Shown: one piece after another, positions 1 to 11,425 of the stretch
Position numbering within the stretch: position 1 is the stretch's first letter
How the letters are laid out: the number at the start of each line of letters is the position of its first letter
Assembly: GCA_024277355.1 (NCBI GenBank)
Contig: JAJRVL010000010.1
Location: 1-11,425, forward strand
DNA length: 11,425 bases
Origin: an archaeon
GTDB lineage: Archaea; Iainarchaeota; Iainarchaeia; Iainarchaeales; 1-14-0-10-31-34
Direction of reading: 5' to 3'
Translations under genes and position numbers: made by a program
Notes under the pieces: model-generated
Databases searched by the model: none
What the model was told of the DNA's origin: nothing
Seen by the model: only the letters and a program-made list of their open reading frames with translations

Positions 1-141
1 TCATTATTTTTAAGTTAAACTGATATAATTAATACAATACTTAAATAAAAAAAGTGGTATTTTGTTTGAATTTATAGCTTTTCTGATAACTTTAACAATT
101 CCTGGTTATTTGTTGGTTGAAAAGCATTTTTTTGGTTTGGA
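1..141. repeat. Terminal direct overlap, copy 1 (identical to 11285-11425); circular-closure signature
   Basis: Base-by-base comparison shows 1-141 equals 11285-11425 with no mismatch, and identity runs to the last base of the window. The repeat covers the GT2 start codon, the 57-bp intergenic region and the first 80 nt of the GT-C gene, so it is the same locus read twice rather than a discrete element. Confidence 0.97.
5..61. promoter_or_regulatory. Divergent intergenic control region between the GT2 gene (minus, ATG at 4-2 = 11288-11286) and the GT-C gene (plus, TTG at 62)
   Basis: 57 bp, almost pure A/T. TATA-like strings are tatttttaag (5-14), tataattaat (24-33) and ttaaataaaaa (41-51). 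A 7-bp perfect inverted repeat, tttaagt (9-15) / acttaaa (39-45), extends to 9/11 matches. GTGGT lies 4-8 nt upstream of TTG 62 and could be an SD-like element. No TSS data. Confidence 0.4.
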
Positions 142-1498
142 GAAATGGGTTTTGTCTGTTTTTTTGTCTTTGTCTGTTACTTCTTTTTTTTATTATTTCA
201 TGGTTTCTTTTTTTGGCATAACAAAAGAAATAATTTATTTTTATGCTTTAATTTTGTTAATTGTTTTTTTTGTGTTAAAAAAACCAAATTTTAAACGAGT
301 GTTTTATTCAATAAAAGAAATTAAGTTACCAAGCAAAACAGTTAAAAAAGAAAATTTATTTGAATTAACAGGAATTTTTATTTTAGTTTTTTGTTTTTCT
401 TTAATTGTTTTTTTTATTTATGCAGGGCAGCCTTATAGTTTTGATGATTCTGCTTATCATTTGCCTATTATTAATGATTTTGCTGATGATGGCGAAAAAA
501 CTTTTTTTGTTGAACCAAAAAATGTTTATGAATTAAGAAGCAATCAGTTTCCTTTGTTGTTTGAATCTTTTGCAGGAGTATCAAAGTTCTTTATTGGAGG
601 AAACTTATTTCATTTTATTTCTTTTTTTTCATTTGTTTTATCTTTATTTTTAGTTTATCTTATTAGTAAACTAACAGGCTATAATGAATTCTTTTCTTTG
701 GTTATTTTTGGTTTAACTCAATCTGTTCTAATTTTAACTCGTTATTTTAGTGCTGAAACTTTTCTGCCACTGCTTTTTTTGGGGGCAGTTTTTTTTGTTT
801 TAAAGTTTATTAAAACAGAAAAACTGTTTTTTATTTTTGTTTCTGGTTTTTTGGCTGGTTTAATGTTTTTATCTAAGTTTACTGGTTTTATTTTTTTTGC
901 TGGCTTATTTTTGTTTTTGCTGTATAAAAGAAAATTTAAAGAAAGTGTTTTATTTGCTTTAATTTTTGTTTTGATTTCTTCAGTTTTTTTTGTTTCTCAT
1001 CTAAATGTTTCTTTTAATGAAAATACTATGGGGGCTTATGGAAAAATAGTTGCTGAAAATATTTGGGATAAACCCTCTTTGAATTTTTTCAAAATTACTG
1101 AAATTTTATTTTATTTTTTTTCAAATAACTATTACTTTTTTTTGATTCCTTTACTTTTTGTTTTAGGTTTTTTTGGTCTGAAAGAAAAAGAATTAGATTT
1201 TTTTGTTTTAATGAACATTACTTTTGTTTTGTTTTTGTTTGTAAATGTTGTGAATCAAATGGTTCCCACTTACACAGGTTTTCCGCGTTATTTTCTTCCA
1301 ATTTATTCTTTATTGTGTATTTTTGCAGGCATCCAATTGAAAAAAGCATTTTTTTTCAGAAATAAGTTAATTAAAGTTTTATTAGGATTGATTTTTATTT
1401 TTTTGATTCTTTTTTCTTCTTTTTTTATTTTGGGGGTGTTCAACCATCAAGCAGGAAAAACTGTTTTTTATTCTGATAAACTGATTCCAAATAATTAA
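62..1498 (+). CDS. GT-C fold integral-membrane glycosyltransferase (ArnT / PMT_2 / GT39-GT83-like), membrane domain; the frame continues past an in-frame TAA at 1496-1498
   Basis: 478 aa and extremely hydrophobic, with roughly a dozen predicted TM segments. The acidic first-loop motif GQPYSFDDSAYHLPIINDF is typical of polyprenyl-phosphate-sugar dependent GT-C enzymes. No WWDYG motif, so not AglB/STT3. TTG start; the frame is closed upstream by TAA at 26-28. Confidence 0.75.
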   Translation: MFEFIAFLITLTIPGYLLVEKHFFGLEKWVLSVFLSLSVTSFFYYFMVSFFGITKEIIYFYALILLIVFFVLKKPNFKRVFYSIKEIKLPSKTVKKENLFELTGIFILVFCFSLIVFFIYAGQPYSFDDSAYHLPIINDFADDGEKTFFVEPKNVYELRSNQFPLLFESFAGVSKFFIGGNLFHFISFFSFVLSLFLVYLISKLTGYNEFFSLVIFGLTQSVLILTRYFSAETFLPLLFLGAVFFVLKFIKTEKLFFIFVSGFLAGLMFLSKFTGFIFFAGLFLFLLYKRKFKESVLFALIFVLISSVFFVSHLNVSFNENTMGAYGKIVAENIWDKPSLNFFKITEILFYFFSNNYYFFLIPLLFVLGFFGLKEKELDFFVLMNITFVLFLFVNVVNQMVPTYTGFPRYFLPIYSLLCIFAGIQLKKAFFFRNKLIKVLLGLIFIFLILFSSFFILGVFNHQAGKTVFYSDKLIPNN

Positions 1499-1543
1499 AA
1501 TGTTTCTGTTTGGTTTGTTAATGGTGCTGCTCCAATAACTGAA

Positions 1544-1777
1544 TTGAATAATGCTGTTTTGTATGATTATGCGTGGAATAATCGCGGCTGGACTTCTTGT
1601 GATTATTTAAATAAAATGAAAATAAATTATGTGGTTTATTATAAAACAGAAGAATCTTATAATCATTCTGATTCTTCAGATTTAAGTATTATTTTTCAAG
1701 AACATTCTTGTTTAGAATTTTTTTCTCAAACAGATTCTAATAATATAATTAATTCTGTGACCTTTAAAGTAAACTAA
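1544..1777 (+). CDS. Probable C-terminal extracytoplasmic domain of the same GT-C protein (same frame; open from 1499), separated only by one TAA
   Basis: 62 and 1544 are in the same frame. Codons 1499-1543 read NVSVWFVNGAAPITE with no stop, so 62-1777 is one 571-codon frame with a single TAA. The 77-aa piece has no signal peptide or TM of its own and only a TTG start. Confidence 0.5.
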   Translation: MNNAVLYDYAWNNRGWTSCDYLNKMKINYVVYYKTEESYNHSDSSDLSIIFQEHSCLEFFSQTDSNNIINSVTFKVN

Positions 1778-1790
1778 TCTTTTTTTTTGC
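1778..1790 (+). terminator. Oligo-T tract (T9) immediately after the TAA stop at 1775-1777
   Basis: Sequence is taa tc ttttttttt gc. Archaeal RNA polymerase terminates at oligo-T tracts (established knowledge). Its position right after the end of the extended GT-C frame supports 1777 as the true 3' end of that gene. Confidence 0.45.
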
Positions 1791-1799
1791 GTTATTTGA

Positions 1800-2012
1800 T
1801 TAATTTTCTTTTATTTGAAATTCAATTCTTTTTATTTTGCTGTTTTTTAATGAAATTTTTTCTGTTTGAAATTCATTTGCCTGAAACTTTATTTTTTTAT
1901 CTGAAATTGATTCAAGATTATTTTGTTCAATAAAACTTCCAAAAGCTATTATTATCATTGAAATAATAAAAAGGATTTCAATGGTAAACAGAATTCTTGT
2001 TTTTTCTTTCAT
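1800..2012 (-). CDS. Small (70 aa) N-terminally membrane-anchored hypothetical protein
   Basis: ATG start. N-terminus is MKEKTRILFTIEILFIISMIIIAFGSF (charged n-region plus about 20 hydrophobic residues), followed by a Lys/Glu/Gln-rich tail. No recognisable family. It sits alone between two plus-strand genes. Confidence 0.35.
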   Translation of the reverse strand: MKEKTRILFTIEILFIISMIIIAFGSFIEQNNLESISDKKIKFQANEFQTEKISLKNSKIKRIEFQIKEN

Positions 2013-2105
2013 AAAATGTTTTTCTGTTGATATTATTAATTTAGTATTTTTTTTGTTAGCTTTTTTCCTAAGTTTTTATAATTCTTCTTTTTACTATTAT
2101 ATAGT
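2013..2105. promoter_or_regulatory. Divergent promoter region for the small minus ORF and the AsnB-like gene
   Basis: TATA-like tttttataa (2073-2081) is centred about 28 nt upstream of ATG 2106, implying a leaderless or near-leaderless mRNA. On the minus strand aaattaataata (about 2031-2044) lies about 25 nt upstream of ATG 2012. No SD-like sequence before 2106. Confidence 0.35.
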
Positions 2106-3506
2106 ATGTGTTCTATTTCAGGCGTGATTTCAAAGAAGAAAGAAAATGTATTTGATCATTTAATGGAATTATTGTTTGATTTAAAGCATAGAGGCAATGA
2201 TTCTTTTGGTGTTTCAATAAATAATAAAACAGTTACAGCTAAAACTATTTCTTTGTTAAGAGAAAAAGAAATTAAAGGTTTATCTGGAATAGCACATTCA
2301 AGATTAGAAATTACAGGAAAACAAACTCAACCTTTATCTTTTGGAAATTCTTCTGTTGTTTTTAACGGTCAAATTTATAATTTTTTTGAGTTTTCTGATT
2401 CTGATTCAGATGCAGTTTTTGTAAAAGAATTTTTTGAAAAAGAATTAAAGAAAAATTCAGTTGAATCTGCAGTAAAGAAATTTATGCAAAAAGCAAATGG
2501 ACAGTATTCTATTGCATTATTTCATAAAAAAAAGTTTTTTGTTTTCAGGGATTTATTTGGAATAAAACCTGTTTGGTTCGGCGAAAATGATTCTTTTATT
2601 GCTTTTTCTTCTGAACCTAAACCATTAAAAAAAATGAATATTAATTTTCCTTTGCCTTTGCTTCCGGGAAACTTATTAATTATGTCTGAAAAAGGAATTG
2701 AAGTAAGAAAAGTTTTTTCTTTTGATTTAATGAAAAAGAAATGTAAAACAAAAGCATCTTTTTTGGATTTAAAAAAAGCTTTTTTTGATTCTATTTATTT
2801 GCGTACCAGAAACTTAGATAAAGCAGGAGTATTGTTTTCAGGGGGAATTGATTCAAGTTTAATTGCTAAAACTGTTTCTTCTGTTGTTCCAAAAACTGAA
2901 TTATTTGCTGTTGGAATGGAAGATTCTCATGATATTGATTCAGCAGTTAAAGCTGCAGAAGAATTAAACTTAAAACTGCATTTAAGAATTTTAAAAAAAG
3001 ATGAATTAAAGGATTATTCATTGAAAAGTTTAAGTTTGCTTTCTTTTTTTGATGAAATGCAATTGCAGTTATCTGTTCCTGAATATGCTGTGTGTGAGTT
3101 AGCCAAAAAGCAGGGAATGAAAGTAATATTTTCAGGGCAAGGTTCAGATGAAATTTTTGCAGGTTATCATAGTTATTCTAAAGCTCTTTCTTCAAAAAAA
3201 AATATTTCAGATGAAATTTGGCATTCAATTCTTAATTTATGGAGCAGAAACCTTTACAGAGAAGATTTAATTTCAATGAATTTTTCTTTAGAACATAGAA
3301 TTCCTTTTTTGGATAAAGAATTAATTTGTACTGCAATGAAAATTCCTGTTAAACAGAAAATTTTTAATGAACAAGATAAATTAAGAAAAAGAATTTTAAG
3401 AAAACTTGCTTTGGATTTAGGTTTATCTGAAAGCATTGCATTAAAACCAAAAAAAGCTTTGCAGTATGGAACAGGAGTGTCAAAACATATAAGCAAGTTT
3501 TTTTAA
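2106..3506 (+). CDS. asnB: Asparagine synthase (glutamine-hydrolysing) family amidotransferase: class II Ntn glutaminase domain plus PP-loop ATP pyrophosphatase domain
   Basis: N-terminal MCSISGV gives Cys2 as the nucleophile. Other motifs: KHRGNDSFG, HSRLEITG, NGQIYNF, PP-loop LFSGGIDSSLIA, FSGQGSDEIFAGY, EHRIPFLD. At 466 aa it is shorter than E. coli AsnB. The symbol denotes family only; the substrate may not be aspartate (see findings). Confidence 0.9.
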   Translation: MCSISGVISKKKENVFDHLMELLFDLKHRGNDSFGVSINNKTVTAKTISLLREKEIKGLSGIAHSRLEITGKQTQPLSFGNSSVVFNGQIYNFFEFSDSDSDAVFVKEFFEKELKKNSVESAVKKFMQKANGQYSIALFHKKKFFVFRDLFGIKPVWFGENDSFIAFSSEPKPLKKMNINFPLPLLPGNLLIMSEKGIEVRKVFSFDLMKKKCKTKASFLDLKKAFFDSIYLRTRNLDKAGVLFSGGIDSSLIAKTVSSVVPKTELFAVGMEDSHDIDSAVKAAEELNLKLHLRILKKDELKDYSLKSLSLLSFFDEMQLQLSVPEYAVCELAKKQGMKVIFSGQGSDEIFAGYHSYSKALSSKKNISDEIWHSILNLWSRNLYREDLISMNFSLEHRIPFLDKELICTAMKIPVKQKIFNEQDKLRKRILRKLALDLGLSESIALKPKKALQYGTGVSKHISKFF

Positions 3507-4069
3507 ATTATAAAATAGTTTACATCCTGTAATCCTGACTGTTTGTCTATTATCATATAATTGCAGTCAGTGGTTGTGCTGTTATAATTTGCATCAATTA
3601 TTTTTTCAAATATAATATTTTTTTCATATAATGCAAGTGAATTTAAATCTAATCCAATTTCAAGTTTATGTCTGCATTGTAAATCCATGCTTATATTTAT
3701 GTCATAAATATTTAATTCTCCCACTGAATGAGGCAGGGTTATTGGACCTAATTTAGTTACATTAAAGTTTTCTATACTGCAGTCTGAATTTGTTGAAGCT
3801 AATACATTTTGGTCATAATAATAAATATTTGAATCTGGATTAAATAATCCTGTAAGGCAGTCGGCTGAATAAGCTGAATCAATTAGTGCATCTGCTGAAG
3901 CTTTATCTAATAATCTTTGAGTATTTTGCCATTGTTTTACAGTAAAAGAAAAACTTTCTTTTTGCGGGATTAATGCCTGGCTTTTGTTAAATGAATTAAC
4001 TGTAAATAATGCTGTTGATAAAACAATTAATGCTATTACTCAGATTAATACACTGTAATACCCCTTCAT
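3503..4069 (-). pseudogene. Fourth class III signal peptide (type IV pilin-like) gene, interrupted by in-frame TGA at 4042-4040 (codon 10)
   Basis: My own reverse-complement translation from ATG 4069-4067 gives MKGYYSVLI*VIALIVLSTALFTVNSFNKSQALIPQKESFSFTVKQWQNTQRLLDKASADALIDSAYSADCLTG...HSVGELNIYD. This is in frame with the tracked ORF 3503-3724. The ATG overlaps the upstream gene's TGA stop (ATGA). The hydrophobic stretch spanning the TGA looks like a pilin N-terminal helix. Confidence 0.6.
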
Positions 4070-4404
4070 CTTAAACTCCTTTTACCCATGCAGTATTTTT
4101 TTTCAATTAATTCTCCTTTGCCGTAAATTAGCTGGTAGTCCATATTGTAATCATATAAAATAAAGCATTCTGCATAATCAAAATTATTGAAATCTGAATT
4201 GCCTGACTGCAAGCCAATATCTTCTGCTGTTTTTCCCTGATAAAATCCTGTTATTGCCTGATTTGGAAGTTCTTGTTTAATAAAAGAAATATTTGCTTCA
4301 CTTCCTTCTTCTATTGAATAAGGAAAAGTCATAATTAATGTAATAATTATTACTGTTGTTAATCCAATTAATGCATCTGTACTAAACATAAATCCTTTAG
4401 TCAT
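4066..4404 (-). CDS. Class III signal peptide / type IV pilin-like protein (112 aa)
   Basis: N-terminus is MTKG|FMFSTDALIGLTTVIIITLIMTF: a short basic n-region and KG before a roughly 20-residue hydrophobic helix. The start overlaps the upstream gene end by 8 nt (ATGACTAA). Two Cys, one N-x-S/T sequon. Confidence 0.6.
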   Translation of the reverse strand: MTKGFMFSTDALIGLTTVIIITLIMTFPYSIEEGSEANISFIKQELPNQAITGFYQGKTAEDIGLQSGNSDFNNFDYAECFILYDYNMDYQLIYGKGELIEKKYCMGKRSLR

Positions 4405-5038
4405 TTTTCCACACCAAAAATTTTATTGTTGCAGGATACATAAAACAGTTTGCTGTATTTCCTGTAATGCAGTATTCCATTTCATTTTTATCTATTGTTA
4501 ATGTTTTTCCGTTTTCGGTATCTGAATGAATCATTACATTTAAGTCTATTGCATAAATATTTTTTGCTAATGCTGGAGGAGAAATTTCACAGTCTGATAA
4601 CAGTGTTGCGTTTTCATCTGGATTTAATCTTCCGCCTAATACTTTAATATAACAAGAATAATCTTTAGGCAACCCTAAAAATTCTTTTAATATTGGCTTA
4701 AATGTTCTGTGATTATTTCCATATTTATCCCATGTTTTGCAGTCGGCTTCACTTCCCCCGCAGTCAGATAAATTTAATGCAAATTCCGGAATGCAGTTGC
4801 TTGCATAAGAAATTATTTTGTTTTTATCTCTTATATCAACTAACTCGCAGATAATTCTTGGATTATTTACCATTAAAACTGAAGCAGTTTTTCCTGTTAT
4901 TTGTGTTTCATCTTTTAATTGTTTGTCTTTGAAATTATAGTTTTCTATTTCGCTTAACTGCATAACTAAACCTATTGCTAAAACAACCAAAACTAATGAC
5001 ATTATGAAATCAAGTGATACTAATTGTCCTTTTTTCAT
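4397..5038 (-). CDS. Class III signal peptide / archaeal type IV pilin-like protein (213 aa), cysteine-rich ectodomain
   Basis: N-terminus is MKKG|QLVSLDFIMSLVLVVLAIGLV. It matches the archaeal prepilin pattern (K/R)G followed by Q-x-S-x-(D/E)-(F/L) and a hydrophobic helix (Class_III signal / DUF361-like). Eight Cys. The start overlaps the upstream stop (ATGA). Confidence 0.75.
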   Translation of the reverse strand: MKKGQLVSLDFIMSLVLVVLAIGLVMQLSEIENYNFKDKQLKDETQITGKTASVLMVNNPRIICELVDIRDKNKIISYASNCIPEFALNLSDCGGSEADCKTWDKYGNNHRTFKPILKEFLGLPKDYSCYIKVLGGRLNPDENATLLSDCEISPPALAKNIYAIDLNVMIHSDTENGKTLTIDKNEMEYCITGNTANCFMYPATIKFLVWKND

Positions 5039-5478
5039 GTTGTTTCACCTAATATTTCTTTGTTTAAGTCTATTGTCATTCCACAGAAATAATTCAGGCT
5101 TGTTGTTGCAGTAAAATTAAAGTTTATGTCTTTTTGGACTGCTACTTCATTTAAGTCAGTTGAATAATGGCTTATTCTGATAAAAGGAGTTGTACTTCTA
5201 TTTAGTGTTATGTTGCAGTCTTGTCCTCCTCTTTTATCTGAATCAAAAATAAATGGAACTTTATAATTAATGCTATAATTGCTGTCTGTTTCATCAAATA
5301 CTTTTGCTTGATTAATTAATTCAAGTAAATCGTTTGCAATATTTTCTTGTTGTGCTCTTATTCCTGTTGTTCTTTCACTTAAAGTTAATTCGCCTGTAAA
5401 AGTCATAAATACGTTTCCTAAAAGTATTGCTGCAATGACTGTAAGCATTAAATCCAAACTAATTTGTCCTTTTTTCAT
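5035..5478 (-). CDS. Class III signal peptide / archaeal type IV pilin-like protein, first gene of the operon
   Basis: I prefer ATG 5478-5476, giving MKKG|QISLDLMLTVIAAILLG. This is paralogous to the next gene's MKKGQLVSLDF, and 15 nt at the 5' end (atgaaaaaaggacaa) are identical in both genes. The tracked TTG at 5499 would add the hydrophobic MYSYLLI before the basic n-region, which is atypical. Two Cys, four N-x-S/T sequons. Confidence 0.75.
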   Translation of the reverse strand: MKKGQISLDLMLTVIAAILLGNVFMTFTGELTLSERTTGIRAQQENIANDLLELINQAKVFDETDSNYSINYKVPFIFDSDKRGGQDCNITLNRSTTPFIRISHYSTDLNEVAVQKDINFNFTATTSLNYFCGMTIDLNKEILGETT

Positions 5479-5517
5479 AATTAATAGATAAGAATACAAT
5501 TCAAGAATATTTAAACC
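5479..5517 (-). promoter_or_regulatory. Candidate promoter of the pilin-like operon
   Basis: Minus-strand tttaaata (plus coordinates 5508-5515) is centred about 33 nt upstream of ATG 5478. That spacing is compatible with an archaeal TATA box and a very short 5' UTR. It lies in the 39-nt gap after the gpmI stop. Confidence 0.4.
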
Positions 5518-7050
5518 TTAATGTAGTATTATGCTTTTTCCTGTCATTTCTTTTGGTTTTTTTATTCCAAGCAATTCAATTATTGTAGGGCTTATATCAA
5601 TTAATCCTGCATTTTTCTTTAATTTTATTTTTTTTAGTTTTTCTTTTCCTGAAACAATAATTAAAGGCACTTTATTCAAAGTGTGTGCTGGACAAACTTG
5701 TTTATTTGAATAAAACATTTGCTCTGCATTTCCATGGTCTGCTGTAATTATTGCTGTTCCGTTTTTTTTCAGTATTTCTTTTATTATTTCTCCAATACAT
5801 TTATCTACTGTTTTTACTGCTTTAATGACTGCATTTAATTTTCCTGAATGGCCGACTAAATCAGGGTTAGCAAAATTTAATATTATTACATTTTGTTTTC
5901 CTTTTTTTATTTCCTGTAAAACTTTGTTTTTAACTTTTATTGCACTCATTTCAGGTTTTAAATCATAAGAAGGAACTTTAGGAGAATTAACTAAAATTCT
6001 TTTTTCTTTTTTGTTTGGTTTTTCTGTTTGGCTGTTAAAAAAGAAAGTTACATGAGCATATTTTTCTGTTTCTGCGATTCTTAATTGATTTAAATTGTTT
6101 TTGGCTAAAACATTTCCTAAATTATTTTTTACTTTTGTTTGTTCAAATGCAATTCCTGCTTTTATTTTTTTTTCATATCTTGTCATGCATACAAAATTTA
6201 CTTTAGGGGATTTAAATTTTCTTTCAGTAAAGCATTTAGTTAACTGCCTGCTTCTGTCTGAACGGAAATTAAAGAAAATAATTAAATCATCTTGTTTTAT
6301 TTTCCCGTTTTCATTTAAACAAATAGGTTTAACATAATAATCTGTTTTATCTCCTCTTTTATATGCGTTTTTTACTGCAGTTAAAGCATTTTTTTCTTTA
6401 AATCCTTTGCCTTTTACAAGCAATTCTATTGTTTGTTTTGTTCTGTTCCAGTTGTTGTCTCTGTCCATTGCATAATATCTTCCTATAATGCTGGTAATTT
6501 TCCCGACTCCAATTTTTTTTATTTCTTTTTCTAATTCTTTTAAGTATTTTCCTGCAGATTTTTCAGGAACATCTCTTCCATCTAAAAAACAGTGAATAAA
6601 TACTTTGTTTATTTTCATTTTTTTTGTTAGTTTCATTAAAGCATACAAATGCTGTGTTGTTGCATGAACTCCTTCATCTGAAAGCAGTCCCATTAAATGA
6701 ACTGCTTTATTTTTTTCTTTTGCTTTTTTTACTGCTTTAACTAAAGTTTCATTTCTATAAAAACTTTTATTTTTTATTGCTTTATTAATTAACATTAATG
6801 GCTGAAAAACAATTCGTCCTGCTCCAATATGCAAATGTCCTACTTCTGAGTTTCCCTGACTTTTTGGAGGCAAACCAACATCTGCTCCTGAACAATTTAA
6901 TTCTGTATTAGAATAATTTTTTAAATAATTTAAATAGTTTTTTGGTTTAGCTAAAAAAACTGCGTTTCCTTTTTTTTGTTTGCTTTTTCCCCAGCCGTCC
7001 ATTATAATTAAAATCAAAGGAACATTTTCTTTTTTTTTCATTTTTTTCAC
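5518..7050 (-). CDS. gpmI: 2,3-bisphosphoglycerate-independent phosphoglycerate mutase (iPGM, GpmI type)
   Basis: Near-complete set of family motifs: LIIMDGWG, NSEVGHLHIGAGRIV (catalytic Ser), GLLSDEGVHAT, HCFLDGRDV, GRYYAMDRDNNWNR, NFANPDLVGHSG, ITADHGNAE. 510 aa from GTG 7050. ATG 7041 (MKKKENVPLILIIMDGWG), preceded by aagtga, is an equally plausible start. Confidence 0.95.
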   Translation of the reverse strand: MKKMKKKENVPLILIIMDGWGKSKQKKGNAVFLAKPKNYLNYLKNYSNTELNCSGADVGLPPKSQGNSEVGHLHIGAGRIVFQPLMLINKAIKNKSFYRNETLVKAVKKAKEKNKAVHLMGLLSDEGVHATTQHLYALMKLTKKMKINKVFIHCFLDGRDVPEKSAGKYLKELEKEIKKIGVGKITSIIGRYYAMDRDNNWNRTKQTIELLVKGKGFKEKNALTAVKNAYKRGDKTDYYVKPICLNENGKIKQDDLIIFFNFRSDRSRQLTKCFTERKFKSPKVNFVCMTRYEKKIKAGIAFEQTKVKNNLGNVLAKNNLNQLRIAETEKYAHVTFFFNSQTEKPNKKEKRILVNSPKVPSYDLKPEMSAIKVKNKVLQEIKKGKQNVIILNFANPDLVGHSGKLNAVIKAVKTVDKCIGEIIKEILKKNGTAIITADHGNAEQMFYSNKQVCPAHTLNKVPLIIVSGKEKLKKIKLKKNAGLIDISPTIIELLGIKKPKEMTGKSIILH

Positions 7051-7137
7051 TTAATTTTTAATTTTTATTTAATCATTTTTTTTGATTTTATTTATTTTTA
7101 ATATTTTTTTGTTATTAATTTATTTTTTTTTATTTCT

Positions 7138-7503
7138 TCATTCAATTATTTCTATTGTTATTTCTTTTCCTGTTTCATCAAATGATTTAATATTATCTAA
7201 ATTAAAAGGCCAACAAATTATTAAGTGTATTTTTCCTAAAACAGAGAAAACATTTAAGTCTGCTGAAGAAGGATTGTTGTTTGGGGATGGGTGTGAATGG
7301 ATTGTTCCAATAATTTTTGAGTCAAACGGAATTAAGTCTGTTCTGATTGAAGAAAAATTTTTACCATAAACTGCCGGCAATACTACTAATTCATCTACTT
7401 CTTCTTTTTCATTTTTTCCTAACATTGAAATGAATTCATTTGGATAAACTTTTCTTGAAGCCATTAAAATTGATTCCAAAACACTTTTTTTTATTTTATG
7501 CAT
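7138..7503 (-). CDS. Stand-alone JAB1/MPN/Mov34 (JAMM) zinc metalloprotease, minimal archaeal type (121 aa)
   Basis: The JAMM motif is complete: upstream Glu in YPNEF, then GTIHSHPSPNNNPSSADL (H-x-H-x7-S-x2-D). The start overlaps the upstream gene end by 8 nt (ATGCATAA). Ends with TGA. Confidence 0.85.
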   Translation of the reverse strand: MHKIKKSVLESILMASRKVYPNEFISMLGKNEKEEVDELVVLPAVYGKNFSSIRTDLIPFDSKIIGTIHSHPSPNNNPSSADLNVFSVLGKIHLIICWPFNLDNIKSFDETGKEITIEIIE

Positions 7504-8413
7504 TTGTTTTCTTCCTTTTTAGAATAAAACTGAATTCATCATAAAATAATGCAAGAAAAACTCCTGCAATAATATAAGATGAAACTAGAAAAATAAACGC
7601 TATTAAAGCAGAATATTCTGGCCCAACTCCAACTAAAGAATAAAGATAAATCAAAATTCCTTCTCTTAATCCTAAACCATTAATTGTTATGGGAATAAGC
7701 CCTATAAGTAGTGCTAAAGATGAAATTAATGCAATATCAATTAATTCAACTTTTTGCCCTAATGCTGAGAATAATATTTGTGTTATCCAAAACATTAAAA
7801 TAAAATTAATTAAAGAAAAAAAGTAATTTGTCAATATTGCTTTTTTTTCAGTTTTAAGATATTCTTTACTTTCTATGAATAATTTATAAATTTTGTTAAC
7901 TAATTTTATTTTTTTTATTTTGTTTTTTAATCCAAGTAAAATAAAAACAACTATAAAAAAAGTAATCAAATAACTAATATCTGGTTTAACTTCAAAATAT
8001 TTTATTAATGCTATTAAAGAAAAAAACCCTATAATTGAAAAAGAAACAAATCTGTCAATAAAGAAAATAGCAAGTGCTTTTTTTGTTGAAACATCTGCTT
8101 TTTTTAAAAGCAAAGCAAAAGACATTTCGCCTATTTTTCCCGGCAAAAACATTCCAGTTGACCAGCTTATTGCTTTAAATCTAAATGTCTGATAAGTTGT
8201 TGTTTTAAGAAATGGTTTTACTGCTAAAGTAGTGATTACTGTTGAAACAACAAAAAAAAATCCAACTAAAACAAAATATTCAATTTTTATCTTTGTTAAT
8301 GCATCTGAAATTTCTTTTAATCCTATAAATTGAATTATAAAAAATAGGATGATAATACTTGTTGCTGTTTTTAGGACAGTTTTTAATTTATTGTTTTTAT
8401 TCATTTCAATCAA
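7496..8413 (-). CDS. LPG_synthase_TM / UPF0104 flippase-like multi-pass membrane protein
   Basis: About 8 TM segments with family-typical loops FLPGKIGEMSFALLLKK and ITINGLGLREGILIYLY. TTG at 8413 is the tracked start. ATG 8404 (MNKNNKLK...) is more likely the real start. Confidence 0.7.
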   Translation of the reverse strand: MIEMNKNNKLKTVLKTATSIIILFFIIQFIGLKEISDALTKIKIEYFVLVGFFFVVSTVITTLAVKPFLKTTTYQTFRFKAISWSTGMFLPGKIGEMSFALLLKKADVSTKKALAIFFIDRFVSFSIIGFFSLIALIKYFEVKPDISYLITFFIVVFILLGLKNKIKKIKLVNKIYKLFIESKEYLKTEKKAILTNYFFSLINFILMFWITQILFSALGQKVELIDIALISSLALLIGLIPITINGLGLREGILIYLYSLVGVGPEYSALIAFIFLVSSYIIAGVFLALFYDEFSFILKRKKTNA

Positions 8414-8474
8414 TCTTTACTAAAAATAATTCAAGGCAATTCAATTAAAAATAGCTTTTGATTTATAAATAACT
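8414..8474. promoter_or_regulatory. Divergent promoter region between the flippase-like gene and the methyltransferase gene
   Basis: ttaaaaata (8445-8453) is centred about 26 nt upstream of ATG 8475, suggesting a leaderless mRNA. tttataaat (8462-8470) and taaaaataa (8421-8429) are further TATA-like candidates usable on either strand. No experimental support. Confidence 0.35.
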
Positions 8475-9287
8475 ATGGAAAAGATAAAAGAAAGAGCATC
8501 TTTTAGCTGTTCTGTTTTTGCCGAAAACTGGAAATCATTAGAAGAATATCTTCTTTTTTTAAAGGAAATTTTTGCATATGATTTTGCAGCAAATAAAATT
8601 TCTAAAGATTCAACAGTATTAGAGCTTGGTTTTGGAGAAGGTTTTGGAACAAAAATGCTTGCAAAAAAAGCAAAAAAAGTTTTTGCATTAGATGTAGACG
8701 AAAAAGCATTTAATCATGCAAAACAAAAATATTCTTCTGAAAAAATACTTTTTAGTTTATATAACGGAAAAAAAATTCCTTTTGAAGATAACTATTTTGA
8801 TGCAGTTGTTTCTTTACAGGTAATTGAACATATCAAAGACGATTTTAATTTTGTTAATGAAATTTACCGAGTAACAAAAAAAAACGCAGTAGTAATTATT
8901 ACGACGCCTAATAGAAAAATAAGACTTAAAGAAAACAGCAAACCCTGGAATGAATTTCATTGCAAAGAATATTCAGAAAAAGAGCTTGAAAATTTGTTTA
9001 ATAATTTCAGTTCAGTAAATATTTTTGGAGTGTTTGCAAGTAAAGAAATTATGAAAACAGAATTAAACAGAATTAAAAAAGCAGTTTTTATGGCTTCATT
9101 AGATCCCTTTAAATTAAGAAAATTTTTTCCATTTTATTTAAAAAATACTCTAAAAAAAATAATAAAAAAAGTATTTGCAAATGAAAAAAGAGAATTTGAC
9201 CAGAAAAAATTCAGTCATAAAGATTTTTTTATTTCAGAAAAAAATGCAGATAACTCTCTTGACTTACTAGCAGTGTGTAGAAAATAA
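8475..9287 (+). CDS. Class I SAM-dependent methyltransferase (Methyltransf_11/23-like)
   Basis: Motif I VLELGFGEGFGTKMLA, the acidic residue after beta-2 in VFALDVDEKA, and motif IV region FDAVVSLQVIEHI. 270 aa, with a C-terminal Lys-rich extension. Confidence 0.85.
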   Translation: MEKIKERASFSCSVFAENWKSLEEYLLFLKEIFAYDFAANKISKDSTVLELGFGEGFGTKMLAKKAKKVFALDVDEKAFNHAKQKYSSEKILFSLYNGKKIPFEDNYFDAVVSLQVIEHIKDDFNFVNEIYRVTKKNAVVIITTPNRKIRLKENSKPWNEFHCKEYSEKELENLFNNFSSVNIFGVFASKEIMKTELNRIKKAVFMASLDPFKLRKFFPFYLKNTLKKIIKKVFANEKREFDQKKFSHKDFFISEKNADNSLDLLAVCRK

Positions 9288-9289
9288 AA
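9280..9289 (-). terminator. Candidate oligo-T terminator (TTTTATTTT on the minus strand) right after the GT4 TGA stop, inside the 3' end of the convergent methyltransferase gene
   Basis: Plus strag 9281-9289 reads aaaataaaa, which is ttttatttt on the minus strand and starts 1 nt after the stop at 9292-9290. The assignment is weak because such runs are common in this composition. Confidence 0.25.
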
Positions 9290-10399
9290 TCAGTTTATTT
9301 CATTTAATCTTTCTTTTAATTCTTTTCCAATTTTTTCTATAATAAATTTTTCTTTAAATAAATTATATCCATTTAAAGCTATTCTTTCTCTTAAAACTTT
9401 ATTTTTTTTAAGTTCAATTATAGTGTTAGCAAGACTTTTTTCACCATTCATTCTGCAAAAAAATATGTTTTCTTTATGGCTAAACACCTCTTTCACTGCT
9501 TTAGATTCTCTTGTTATTACAGGTTTTTTCATTGCAATACATTGAAATACTTTGTTTGGAATTACATTTGAAGCTTTTTCTGTTTTCCCAAAAATTCCCA
9601 AACAGACATCAAATCTTGCAATTTTTCCTGGAAGTTCTTCTAATTTAACTGGTTTAAAAAATTTAATATTTGAAATATTGTTTTGTTTTGCTAAATTACT
9701 TATTTCCACATAAAGCTGTCCTTTTCCTATTATTTCAAACTCGATGTTTTCTTTTTCAAGTATTTTTACTGCTTTAATAATATATTTTATTCCATGTAAT
9801 GGAATAAAAGTTCCATAAAATCCTACTTTAAATTTTTTGTTTTCTTTTGGTTTTTTTGGGTAAAAAATTGTTTCATCTGCCCCAACAAAAACTTTAATGA
9901 ATTTATTTTTGTTTAATCCAAATTTGTTTGTAAAATAATTTATATGTGATTCAGTATCAAGAATTATTTTGTTGCTTAATTTTAATCCAAATTTTTCCAG
10001 ATAAAATACTATTTTTGCGGTAATTGAATTTTCTTTTATTACTTTTCTGTCTTCAATTAAAGTGTTGTAAATAGAAACTAAAGGATTAATTACGAGTTTT
10101 TTTCTTGAAAAAAAAGAAATTATTTTAGCTAAAAAAACATCAGGGAAAGAAGGAAACCCAACTAAAATTAAATCGTAGTTTTTTATTTTAACAGATTTTA
10201 TAATTAATTTTAAATAAGCTGAAAAATAATCAATTATTAAACTAAGATTTTCTATTATAAAATTTTTTGAGTATTTTTTTCTTTTTTTTATTGGAACATT
10301 AATTTCAATTACTTTAACATCATTTTTTTTTAGCCCTTCAATAAAAATCTTGTTTCTTGGATAATTTTTTTCATATGTACCAAAATAAAGTATTTTCAT
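9290..10399 (-). CDS. GT-B fold glycosyltransferase, group 1 / GT4-like
   Basis: 369 aa. The N-terminal MKILYFGTYEKNYPRN and central VGFYGTFIPLHGIKYIIKA resemble the Glyco_trans_4 and Glycos_transf_1 architecture. The C-terminal FDVCLGIFGKTEKASNVIPNKVFQCIAMKKPVIT corresponds to the nucleotide-sugar binding E-x7-E region, here degenerate. The ATG lies 4 nt after the GT2 stop. Confidence 0.75.
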   Translation of the reverse strand: MKILYFGTYEKNYPRNKIFIEGLKKNDVKVIEINVPIKKRKKYSKNFIIENLSLIIDYFSAYLKLIIKSVKIKNYDLILVGFPSFPDVFLAKIISFFSRKKLVINPLVSIYNTLIEDRKVIKENSITAKIVFYLEKFGLKLSNKIILDTESHINYFTNKFGLNKNKFIKVFVGADETIFYPKKPKENKKFKVGFYGTFIPLHGIKYIIKAVKILEKENIEFEIIGKGQLYVEISNLAKQNNISNIKFFKPVKLEELPGKIARFDVCLGIFGKTEKASNVIPNKVFQCIAMKKPVITRESKAVKEVFSHKENIFFCRMNGEKSLANTIIELKKNKVLRERIALNGYNLFKEKFIIEKIGKELKERLNEIN

Positions 10400-10403
10400 T
10401 TTT

Positions 10404-11288
10404 TCACTTTTTCATGTCAGCCAGAAAACCAAATAAAATAATTTGTAATCCGGTTACAATTAAAATCATTGTTAAAATCATTAAGGCAATATGCCCTTCT
10501 ATTCCTGAAGTTAAATGCAAAAACACTAAATATAACCCCGTCAAAAAACCTAATCCAAATAAGCTTCCTCCAATTAAACCAAAAAACTTTAATGGAGCAT
10601 AATCTCTGTAAACTCTTAAAATGTTAAGCCATGCTTTAATTGCATAATCAAAAGGATTAGACATTAACCTGCTTTCTCCTTGAGTTCTTTTTCTGAAAGT
10701 GCATGGAATTTCTTTTACTTTAAATTTTTCTTTTGTTGTTCTGATTATTTGTTCTTGTGTGTAAGTGTAATTTGCGATTATATCTAATTTTGCTATTTTT
10801 TGGTTAAATGCTCTAAATCCTGTTTGTGCATCAGTTATTTGCTGGTGAGTTATGTTTGAAATCACTTTAGAGAAAGCTTTGTTGCCTAATTTTTTGATTA
10901 AAGGCATTTCTTCTATTTTTCCTGCAAATCTGCTTGCTAAAACTAAATCATTTCCTTTTCTTACTTCTTTTATCATTAAAGGAATTATTTTTGGGTCATA
11001 TTGTCCGTCTGCGTCAACATGAATTATTATTTCAGGATTTAATTTTAATGCCTGTTTCATTTCTGTTCTAAAAGTTTCAGCTAAACCTGAATTTCTTGGA
11101 TGAGAAAAAACAATTGCATTTTCTTTTTTTGCTTCTATTACAGTATTATCTTTACTGCCGTCATCTAATACAAGAATTTTATATTCTTCATTTTTCAGAT
11201 ATTGTTTTAATTCTCTTATCACTGAAGAAATTGTTTTTTCTTCATTGAATGCAGGAATAGTTATTACAATTATTTTTTTTCCCCTCAT
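10404..11288 (-). CDS. GT2 family polyprenyl-phosphate sugar synthase-like glycosyltransferase (DPM1 / GtrB / ArnC-like) with two C-terminal TM helices
   Basis: Motifs IIVITIPAFNEEKTI, ILVLDDGSKDNT, HVDADGQYDP (DxD) and QTGFRAF. Two C-terminal TM helices follow: LKFFGLIGGSLFGLGFLTGLYLVFLHL and HIALMILTMILIVTGLQIILFGFLADM. This GT-A domain plus C-terminal TM pair is the GtrB/ArnC architecture. The start codon lies inside the terminal overlap. Confidence 0.9.
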   Translation of the reverse strand: MRGKKIIVITIPAFNEEKTISSVIRELKQYLKNEEYKILVLDDGSKDNTVIEAKKENAIVFSHPRNSGLAETFRTEMKQALKLNPEIIIHVDADGQYDPKIIPLMIKEVRKGNDLVLASRFAGKIEEMPLIKKLGNKAFSKVISNITHQQITDAQTGFRAFNQKIAKLDIIANYTYTQEQIIRTTKEKFKVKEIPCTFRKRTQGESRLMSNPFDYAIKAWLNILRVYRDYAPLKFFGLIGGSLFGLGFLTGLYLVFLHLTSGIEGHIALMILTMILIVTGLQIILFGFLADMKK

Positions 11289-11425
11289 TATTTTTAAGTT
11301 AAACTGATATAATTAATACAATACTTAAATAAAAAAAGTGGTATTTTGTTTGAATTTATAGCTTTTCTGATAACTTTAACAATTCCTGGTTATTTGTTGG
11401 TTGAAAAGCATTTTTTTGGTTTGGA
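11285..11425. repeat. Terminal direct overlap, copy 2 (identical to 1-141)
   Basis: See copy 1. It contains the duplicated intergenic region (11289-11345) and a redundant copy of codons 1-26 of the GT-C gene (11346-11425), which is not an independent gene. Confidence 0.97.

Follow-up and report, generated by a model that had tools for sequence, protein, structure and literature searches.

An apparent 11.3-kb circle from a DPANN archaeon appears to be a conserved chromosomal block read head to tail

Description

Contig JAJRVL010000010.1 (GenBank assembly GCA_024277355.1) is an 11,425-bp stretch of DNA (GC content 25.6%) assigned to the archaeal lineage Iainarchaeota, and is referred to here at its full length as the window. 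An initial annotation, made from the letters of the sequence, noted that its two ends are identical, closed it into a circle or tandem unit, and placed weight on the lack of any recognisable replication or mobility gene. Here, we describe the genes of this unit and compare their order with that in related genomes, from which the window appears to be a conserved 11.3-kb chromosomal block of an AT-rich DPANN archaeon of the Iainarchaeota/Diapherotrites group, and not a replicon. The informative join is at positions 1778-1799, inside the window, and was missed by the initial annotation, which had looked at the window ends.

Relatives for comparison were Iainarchaeota/Diapherotrites loci found through homologues of iPGM (2,3-bisphosphoglycerate-independent phosphoglycerate mutase) and through a pattern scan of genome collections, with window positions 1707-1763 or a back-translated motif of the ABCE1/RLI protein as the pattern, which three relatives matched. 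These loci are Ga0434945_000019 from JGI (217,889 bp; L001), SRR7048224_71766 (41 kb) and CAZSOZ010000001.1 (364,048 bp) (L002/L006), JAFCDN010000023.1 from Candidatus Iainarchaeum (37,730 bp; L004), PFAI01000017.1 from Candidatus Diapherotrites (31,599 bp; L005), JBDRFE010000002.1 (146,652 bp; L009), and contig k141_494777 of European Nucleotide Archive (ENA) analysis ERZ27247117 (L008).

Results

Direct comparison of the ends shows positions 1-141 and 11285-11425 to be identical base for base, and 141 bp is exactly the longest prefix that matches a suffix, leaving a non-redundant unit of 11,284 bp. Each copy of this terminal overlap holds 4 nt from the start of a GT2 glycosyltransferase gene (ATG at 11286-11288, reverse strand), a 57-bp spacer between divergent genes (5-61), and the first 80 nt of a GT-C glycosyltransferase gene (TTG start at 62), and the second copy is the same locus read again, which closes a de Bruijn cycle at k=141. 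The overlap is not of low complexity, and a repeat search of the whole unit found neither a third copy nor any other long repeat, only chance AT-rich matches. An exact overlap equal to the final k, without low complexity and without a copy elsewhere, is the pattern of a contig formed from a de Bruijn cycle. The identical ends first reported are thus confirmed as a maximal match, and their reading as the closure of a cycle instead of a discrete repeat element, with the contents originally given for them, holds up. The gene-dense map of about 13 genes is also sound, as the unit has 13 genes, is 96.7% coding, and has no non-coding gap longer than 96 bp.

Starting at the left end, a gene for a GT-C-fold membrane glycosyltransferase (PMT_2/ArnT-like; 62-1777, forward strand) matches Pfam PMT_2 over 62-1498 and is interrupted by an in-frame TAA at 1496-1498. 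Facing it across a 22-bp spacer is orf70 (1800-2012, reverse strand), which encodes a 70-aa small membrane protein with no credible family match; it adjoins the asparagine synthase gene in relatives, and its orthologues in L001, L002, L004, L005 and L009 are 70-74 aa long. The asparagine synthase gene itself (glutamine-hydrolysing, AsnB-like; 2106-3506, forward strand) matches Pfam Asn_synthase (4.5e-44) and GATase_7, and its product is about 74% identical to the relatives' proteins. Four small pilin-like genes on the reverse strand follow, here called pil4 (3503-4069, with an in-frame TGA at 4040-4042 as its tenth codon), pil3 (4066-4404, 112 aa), pil2 (4397-5038, 213 aa) and pil1 (5035-5499). 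The remaining genes are those for iPGM, a core glycolytic enzyme (5518-7050, reverse strand; Pfam iPGM_N 2.6e-77; the database copy, 100% identical, starts at 7041), a JAB/MPN-domain protein (7138-7503, reverse strand; Pfam Prok-JAB 1.7e-10), a flippase-like membrane protein (7496-8413, reverse strand; LPG_synthase_TM / TIGR00374), a class I S-adenosylmethionine-dependent methyltransferase (8475-9287, forward strand; Pfam Methyltransf_11), a GT-B glycosyltransferase, here GT1 (9290-10399, reverse strand; Pfam Glycos_transf_1), and the GT2 glycosyltransferase with C-terminal membrane helices, resembling dolichyl-phosphate glycosyltransferases (10404-11288, reverse strand; Pfam Glycos_transf_2 1e-21). 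In a protein database search the relatives' iPGM proteins, most of them encoded on long contigs, were 72-80% identical to that of the window, and GT2 is 79-81% identical to its counterparts. The JAB/MPN gene shares 8 nt with the flippase-like gene, and its place in relatives is always immediately upstream of the iPGM gene; its product has weak matches to desampylase and RadC-type models.

The four pilin-like genes (3503-5499) match no family in Pfam, NCBIfam or PHROGs. Their products begin with M-x-K-G followed by a hydrophobic helix, seen for example in Pil3, and this arrangement is invariant in an alignment of 16 paralogues and orthologues; it matches the archaeal class III (prepilin) signal, and the proteins may be pilin-like. 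Translation of pil1 probably begins at the ATG at 5478 (MKKGQISLD...), since Met-8 of the open reading frame (ORF) is invariant in the alignment. Pil2 is Cys-rich and probably secreted, shows 67-93% identity in five relatives, and has many cysteines that are invariant across its orthologues in L001, L002 and L009; its single-sequence AlphaFold model is poor (predicted local distance difference test score, pLDDT, 43), with an N-terminal helix and then strands. Just upstream of the block, relatives carry a Peptidase_A24 (prepilin peptidase) gene and a gene for a Class_IIIsignal protein. Judged by their sequences, the four small genes appear to encode pilin-like surface proteins of a DPANN family not yet described.

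Where contigs reach far enough, at least five relatives carry these genes in unchanged order and orientation inside contigs of 31-364 kb. On the left, the relatives' order is prepilin peptidase, three small genes and TctA, then GT-C (reverse), GT2, GT1, methyltransferase, flippase-like, JAB and iPGM genes; on the right it continues with pil1, pil2, pil3, pil4, AsnB (reverse) and orf70, then ABCE1/RLI (reverse) and Pelota. In all relatives examined, a TctA transporter gene borders the block on one side and the essential ABCE1/RLI and Pelota genes border it on the other; the block has a fixed chromosomal position in at least five of them and was not seen apart from the chromosome. Nucleotide alignments of the window to relatives are collinear at about 70-80% identity, and the conserved genes of the block share roughly 50-81% protein identity; only the internal GT1 and methyltransferase cassette and the body of GT-C vary. 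The closest relative found is a 1,810-bp Logan contig (SRR27458547_29791; L003), which is 88.9% identical in nucleotide sequence to window positions 4387-6196, covering the 3' end of the iPGM gene, pil1 and pil2; this sequencing run may hold a sister strain. Searches with the relatives' ABCE1/RLI and TctA proteins gave two candidate proteins of the source genome, of which P0258 was rejected, as it belongs to a different organism at 68% nucleotide identity. The RLI protein P0130 is encoded on a 104,433-bp contig without iPGM and may be the RLI of the window's genome, a link on which the identity pattern is uninformative; if it does come from the same genome, the block is not beside RLI there, which fits a collapsed repeat and an empty site alike.

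Against this gene order, the ends of the window are ordinary. Both align to a single overlapping stretch of L002 (5684-5826), and the divergent adjacency of GT2 and GT-C occurs in each relative whose contig holds both genes (L001, L002, L008 and L009). The alignments indicate that the window ends reflect a native adjacency, and hence are not the informative join. The sole join in the unit that is not seen in relatives is the 22-bp spacer at 1778-1799, TCTTTTTTTTTGCGTTATTTGA, which lies between the stop codons of GT-C (1775-1777) and of orf70 (1800-1802, other strand). In relatives the 3' end of GT-C faces the 3' end of TctA, and the 3' end of orf70 overlaps the 3' end of ABCE1/RLI; in the window the two outer ends of the block are united head to tail, exactly at gene ends, within a T9 run between two convergent gene 3' ends. 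Comparison with relatives revealed no recognisable TctA or RLI coding remnants in the 22 bp. The two block ends share no repeat of 21 bp or longer, and the surroundings of the spacer are not of low complexity beyond the T9 run. The junction has the form expected of a tandem duplication, uniting head to tail the far ends of a segment that relatives carry once and without interruption. An either/or pattern covering both block edges had no match in JGI metagenomes or IMG/VR.

Profile searches of all ORFs against Pfam, NCBIfam and PHROGs returned no match to Rep, Orc1/Cdc6, MCM, primase, ParA/B, integrase, transposase, capsid or terminase families, and orf70 and the four pilin-like ORFs matched no Rep, integrase or capsid family in the same databases, so that the initial gene inventory, including its absence of replicon and mobility genes, was correct. 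PHROGs gave weak non-structural matches only, two of the JAB protein to families annotated as tail proteins (E=5e-4 and 5e-3) and one of the methyltransferase, and the window has no capsid, portal or terminase gene and no IMG/VR match that would mark a virus or provirus. Scans of the window found no tRNA, no Rfam family, no motif resembling an origin recognition box (ORB) and no terminator, and a repeat search of the unit found no att-like direct repeat, only chance AT-rich matches. An autonomous replicon is not indicated, as there is no initiator gene and no recognisable origin, and with no intergenic gap above 96 bp there is no room for a typical one. The cumulative-skew analysis proposed at the outset was run; the GC skew changes direction near 3,750 and again at the ends, tracking gene orientation, and gives no replicon signal. 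A genomic island is not indicated either, since the unit lacks an integrase or recombinase, att repeats and a tRNA, and its position is neither patchy nor variable among relatives. The weight first placed on the missing genes is not supported: relatives carry this block as an ordinary, conserved part of the chromosome, and replication and mobility genes are absent for that reason.

Two of the 13 genes are broken in the window and intact in relatives. In GT-C, the TAA at 1496-1498 stands where relatives have Ser (TCA/TCC), and the C-terminal 77 aa past it are still in frame and homologous when aligned to the orthologues of L001 (570 aa) and L002 (577 aa). In pil4, the TGA at 4040-4042 replaces GGA (Gly) of relatives, whose proteins are intact at 192-199 aa. 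Both nonsense changes are recent, single G:C-to-T:A substitutions, and the sequence downstream of them is still conserved. Stop-codon recoding was considered for the TAA and TGA and rejected, as the stops are of two kinds and a single base change separates each from the relatives' codon. The changes are compatible with relaxed selection on redundant copies, which they do not prove.

The glycosylation genes vary more than their neighbours. Between relatives, GT-C proteins share only about 50% identity, with the first approximately 45 residues conserved. The window GT1 has no significant similarity to GT1 of L001 and is not orthologous to the relatives' GT1 at the same position, and the methyltransferase is of the Methyltransf_11 type on the opposite strand, where relatives carry a Methyltransf_21-type gene. 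By sequence comparison, GT1 and the methyltransferase (8475-10399) appear to be a swapped glycosylation cassette between the conserved GT2 and flippase-like genes.

Relatives show instability at this locus too, in the form of duplication and of broken assemblies. In L008 (positions 1-177), a second GT-C paralogue directly follows the stop codon of the first, its 5' end has 77% nucleotide identity to that of the first, and the contig ends about 140 nt into this second copy. The 146,652-bp contig of L009 breaks off within GT-C, about 135 nt from its 5' end (L009 positions 1-260), and the window ends in the equivalent stretch of GT2 start, spacer and GT-C 5' end (window 1-195). Homologues of TctA from this clade are mostly on contigs of 2.5-8 kb, and those of RLI and iPGM mostly on contigs of 20-364 kb. 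A conserved GT-C 5' end followed by a highly variable body appears to be a recurrent point of assembly breakage, probably because of strain heterogeneity. Taken together, these features suggest a surface-glycosylation region that varies between strains and has tangled assembly more than once.

Discussion

The default largest k-mer of MEGAHIT is 141, the length of the terminal overlap. The ENA contig of L008, k141_494777, follows the same k=141 naming convention, and we infer that MEGAHIT assembled the window. Terminal repeats of contigs cluster at assembler k-mer lengths (CheckV; PMC8116208), so the suggestion that the overlap is the signature of an assembly cycle stands. The general event, a chromosomal segment assembled as an apparent circle, is already known: among the 'circular' contigs that MEGAHIT and IDBA-UD produced from mock viromes, 10-30% were false, with repeats as their source (Roux et al., 2017; PMC5610896). 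The window is like these false circular de Bruijn contigs in its exact overlap at the largest k and its sub-genomic content, but differs in that its cycle needs one new junction (1778-1799) that is absent in relatives, which implies that ends were truly joined head to tail in the DNA or the library, beyond a shared repeat. A unitig bounded by a chromosomal repeat present twice is unlikely; the overlap would then be 2k minus the repeat length, and the repeat would have to measure exactly 141 bp.

Of the explanations considered, we favour, as the probable one, a head-to-tail repeat of the conserved chromosomal block that was collapsed into a k=141 cycle. Tandem duplication or amplification would have given the chromosome more than one copy of the block, in the whole population or in part of it, with the outer ends of the block joined head to tail through the 22-bp spacer at 1778-1799; a k=141 de Bruijn assembler such as MEGAHIT would then collapse the copies to one cycle, emitted with a k-length overlap. 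The cycle crosses the new junction, and therefore the junction existed in the DNA or the library; that it belongs to a tandem repeat rather than a free circle is an inferred step. Recombination between tandem copies would also free unit circles, so the tandem and circular states would be linked. The window resembles known tandem segmental duplications or amplifications, whose units are joined at microhomology, in its head-to-tail join, its lack of mobility genes, its homopolymer-containing spacer and its nonsense mutations compatible with redundancy. It differs from them in that the assembly has no branch at the boundary. The missing branch is one of two observations that count against a collapsed tandem repeat: a two-copy duplication with flanks of equal depth should branch at its boundaries and break the contig at 1778-1799, and the contig runs through, so the flanks must be rarer than the cycle, pruned, or absent, a situation that a free circle or a chimera also allows. 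The other is that both breakpoints are within 22 bp of stop codons, tidier than is expected of random duplication breakpoints.

Among the options first proposed, tandem duplication is accordingly the favoured one, an excised circle is still viable, and an autonomous circle is disfavoured. A real, non-autonomous extrachromosomal circle, excised by recombination between tandem copies or at oligo-T microhomology and abundant enough to give an unbranched cycle, is a possible but clearly less likely explanation. It would suit a contig that crosses the junction unbroken and closes with a k-length overlap, as an unbranched cycle should, and a junction that sits in a T9 run between convergent 3' ends. 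Yet the unit has no recombinase, att site or tRNA, the block occupies a single chromosomal site in at least five relatives, any circle lacking an origin would be lost by dilution, and searches of other assemblies gave no circular copy. The likeness to small archaeal plasmids and excisable islands ends at size and apparent circularity: the window has no Rep, Orc1/Cdc6, integrase, att site, tRNA target or origin-sized gap, and its content is core chromosomal genes.

Somewhat more doubtful is an artefact of assembly or library, in which the junction came from chimeric molecules (e.g. from whole-genome amplification) or from a MEGAHIT mis-join at a strain-heterogeneous, extremely AT-rich locus. 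The frequency of false circular MEGAHIT contigs (PMC5610896) speaks for it, as do the L008 and L009 contigs that end in or beside the GT-C 5' region and the short contigs of TctA homologues, and the ends of the window in that same stretch suggest pruned branches. Against this, a join at k=141 demands real 141-mers across the junction, in a spacer region of ordinary complexity outside the T9 run and with no repeat of at least 21 bp between the block ends. Least likely is a maintained, host-replicated 11.3-kb mini-replicon that has left the ancestral TctA/ABCE1 site and carries iPGM, AsnB, pilin and glycosylation genes present nowhere else in the cell, since its closed cycle, and the finding of each of these proteins on one contig only with no second copy detected in the database, are set against the lack of an initiator gene, an ORB-like motif or an intergenic region above 96 bp, a skew that follows gene orientation only, an ancestral state that is chromosomal in all relatives examined, and two genes that are already broken. 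If true, a free circle with core metabolic genes would be unusual for archaea.

The window has the same genes, order and orientation as the pilin, glycosylation and iPGM locus of Iainarchaeota (Diapherotrites), from which it differs in lacking the TctA and ABCE1/RLI flanks, in its swapped GT1 and methyltransferase cassette, and in its two broken genes. It is mainly a cautionary case, in which a k-length overlap together with missing replicon genes calls for a synteny check before a new replicon type is named, and here that check accounts fully for the missing genes. A modest biological point may remain, in that a DPANN surface pilin and glycosylation locus appears to have been duplicated or amplified head to tail.

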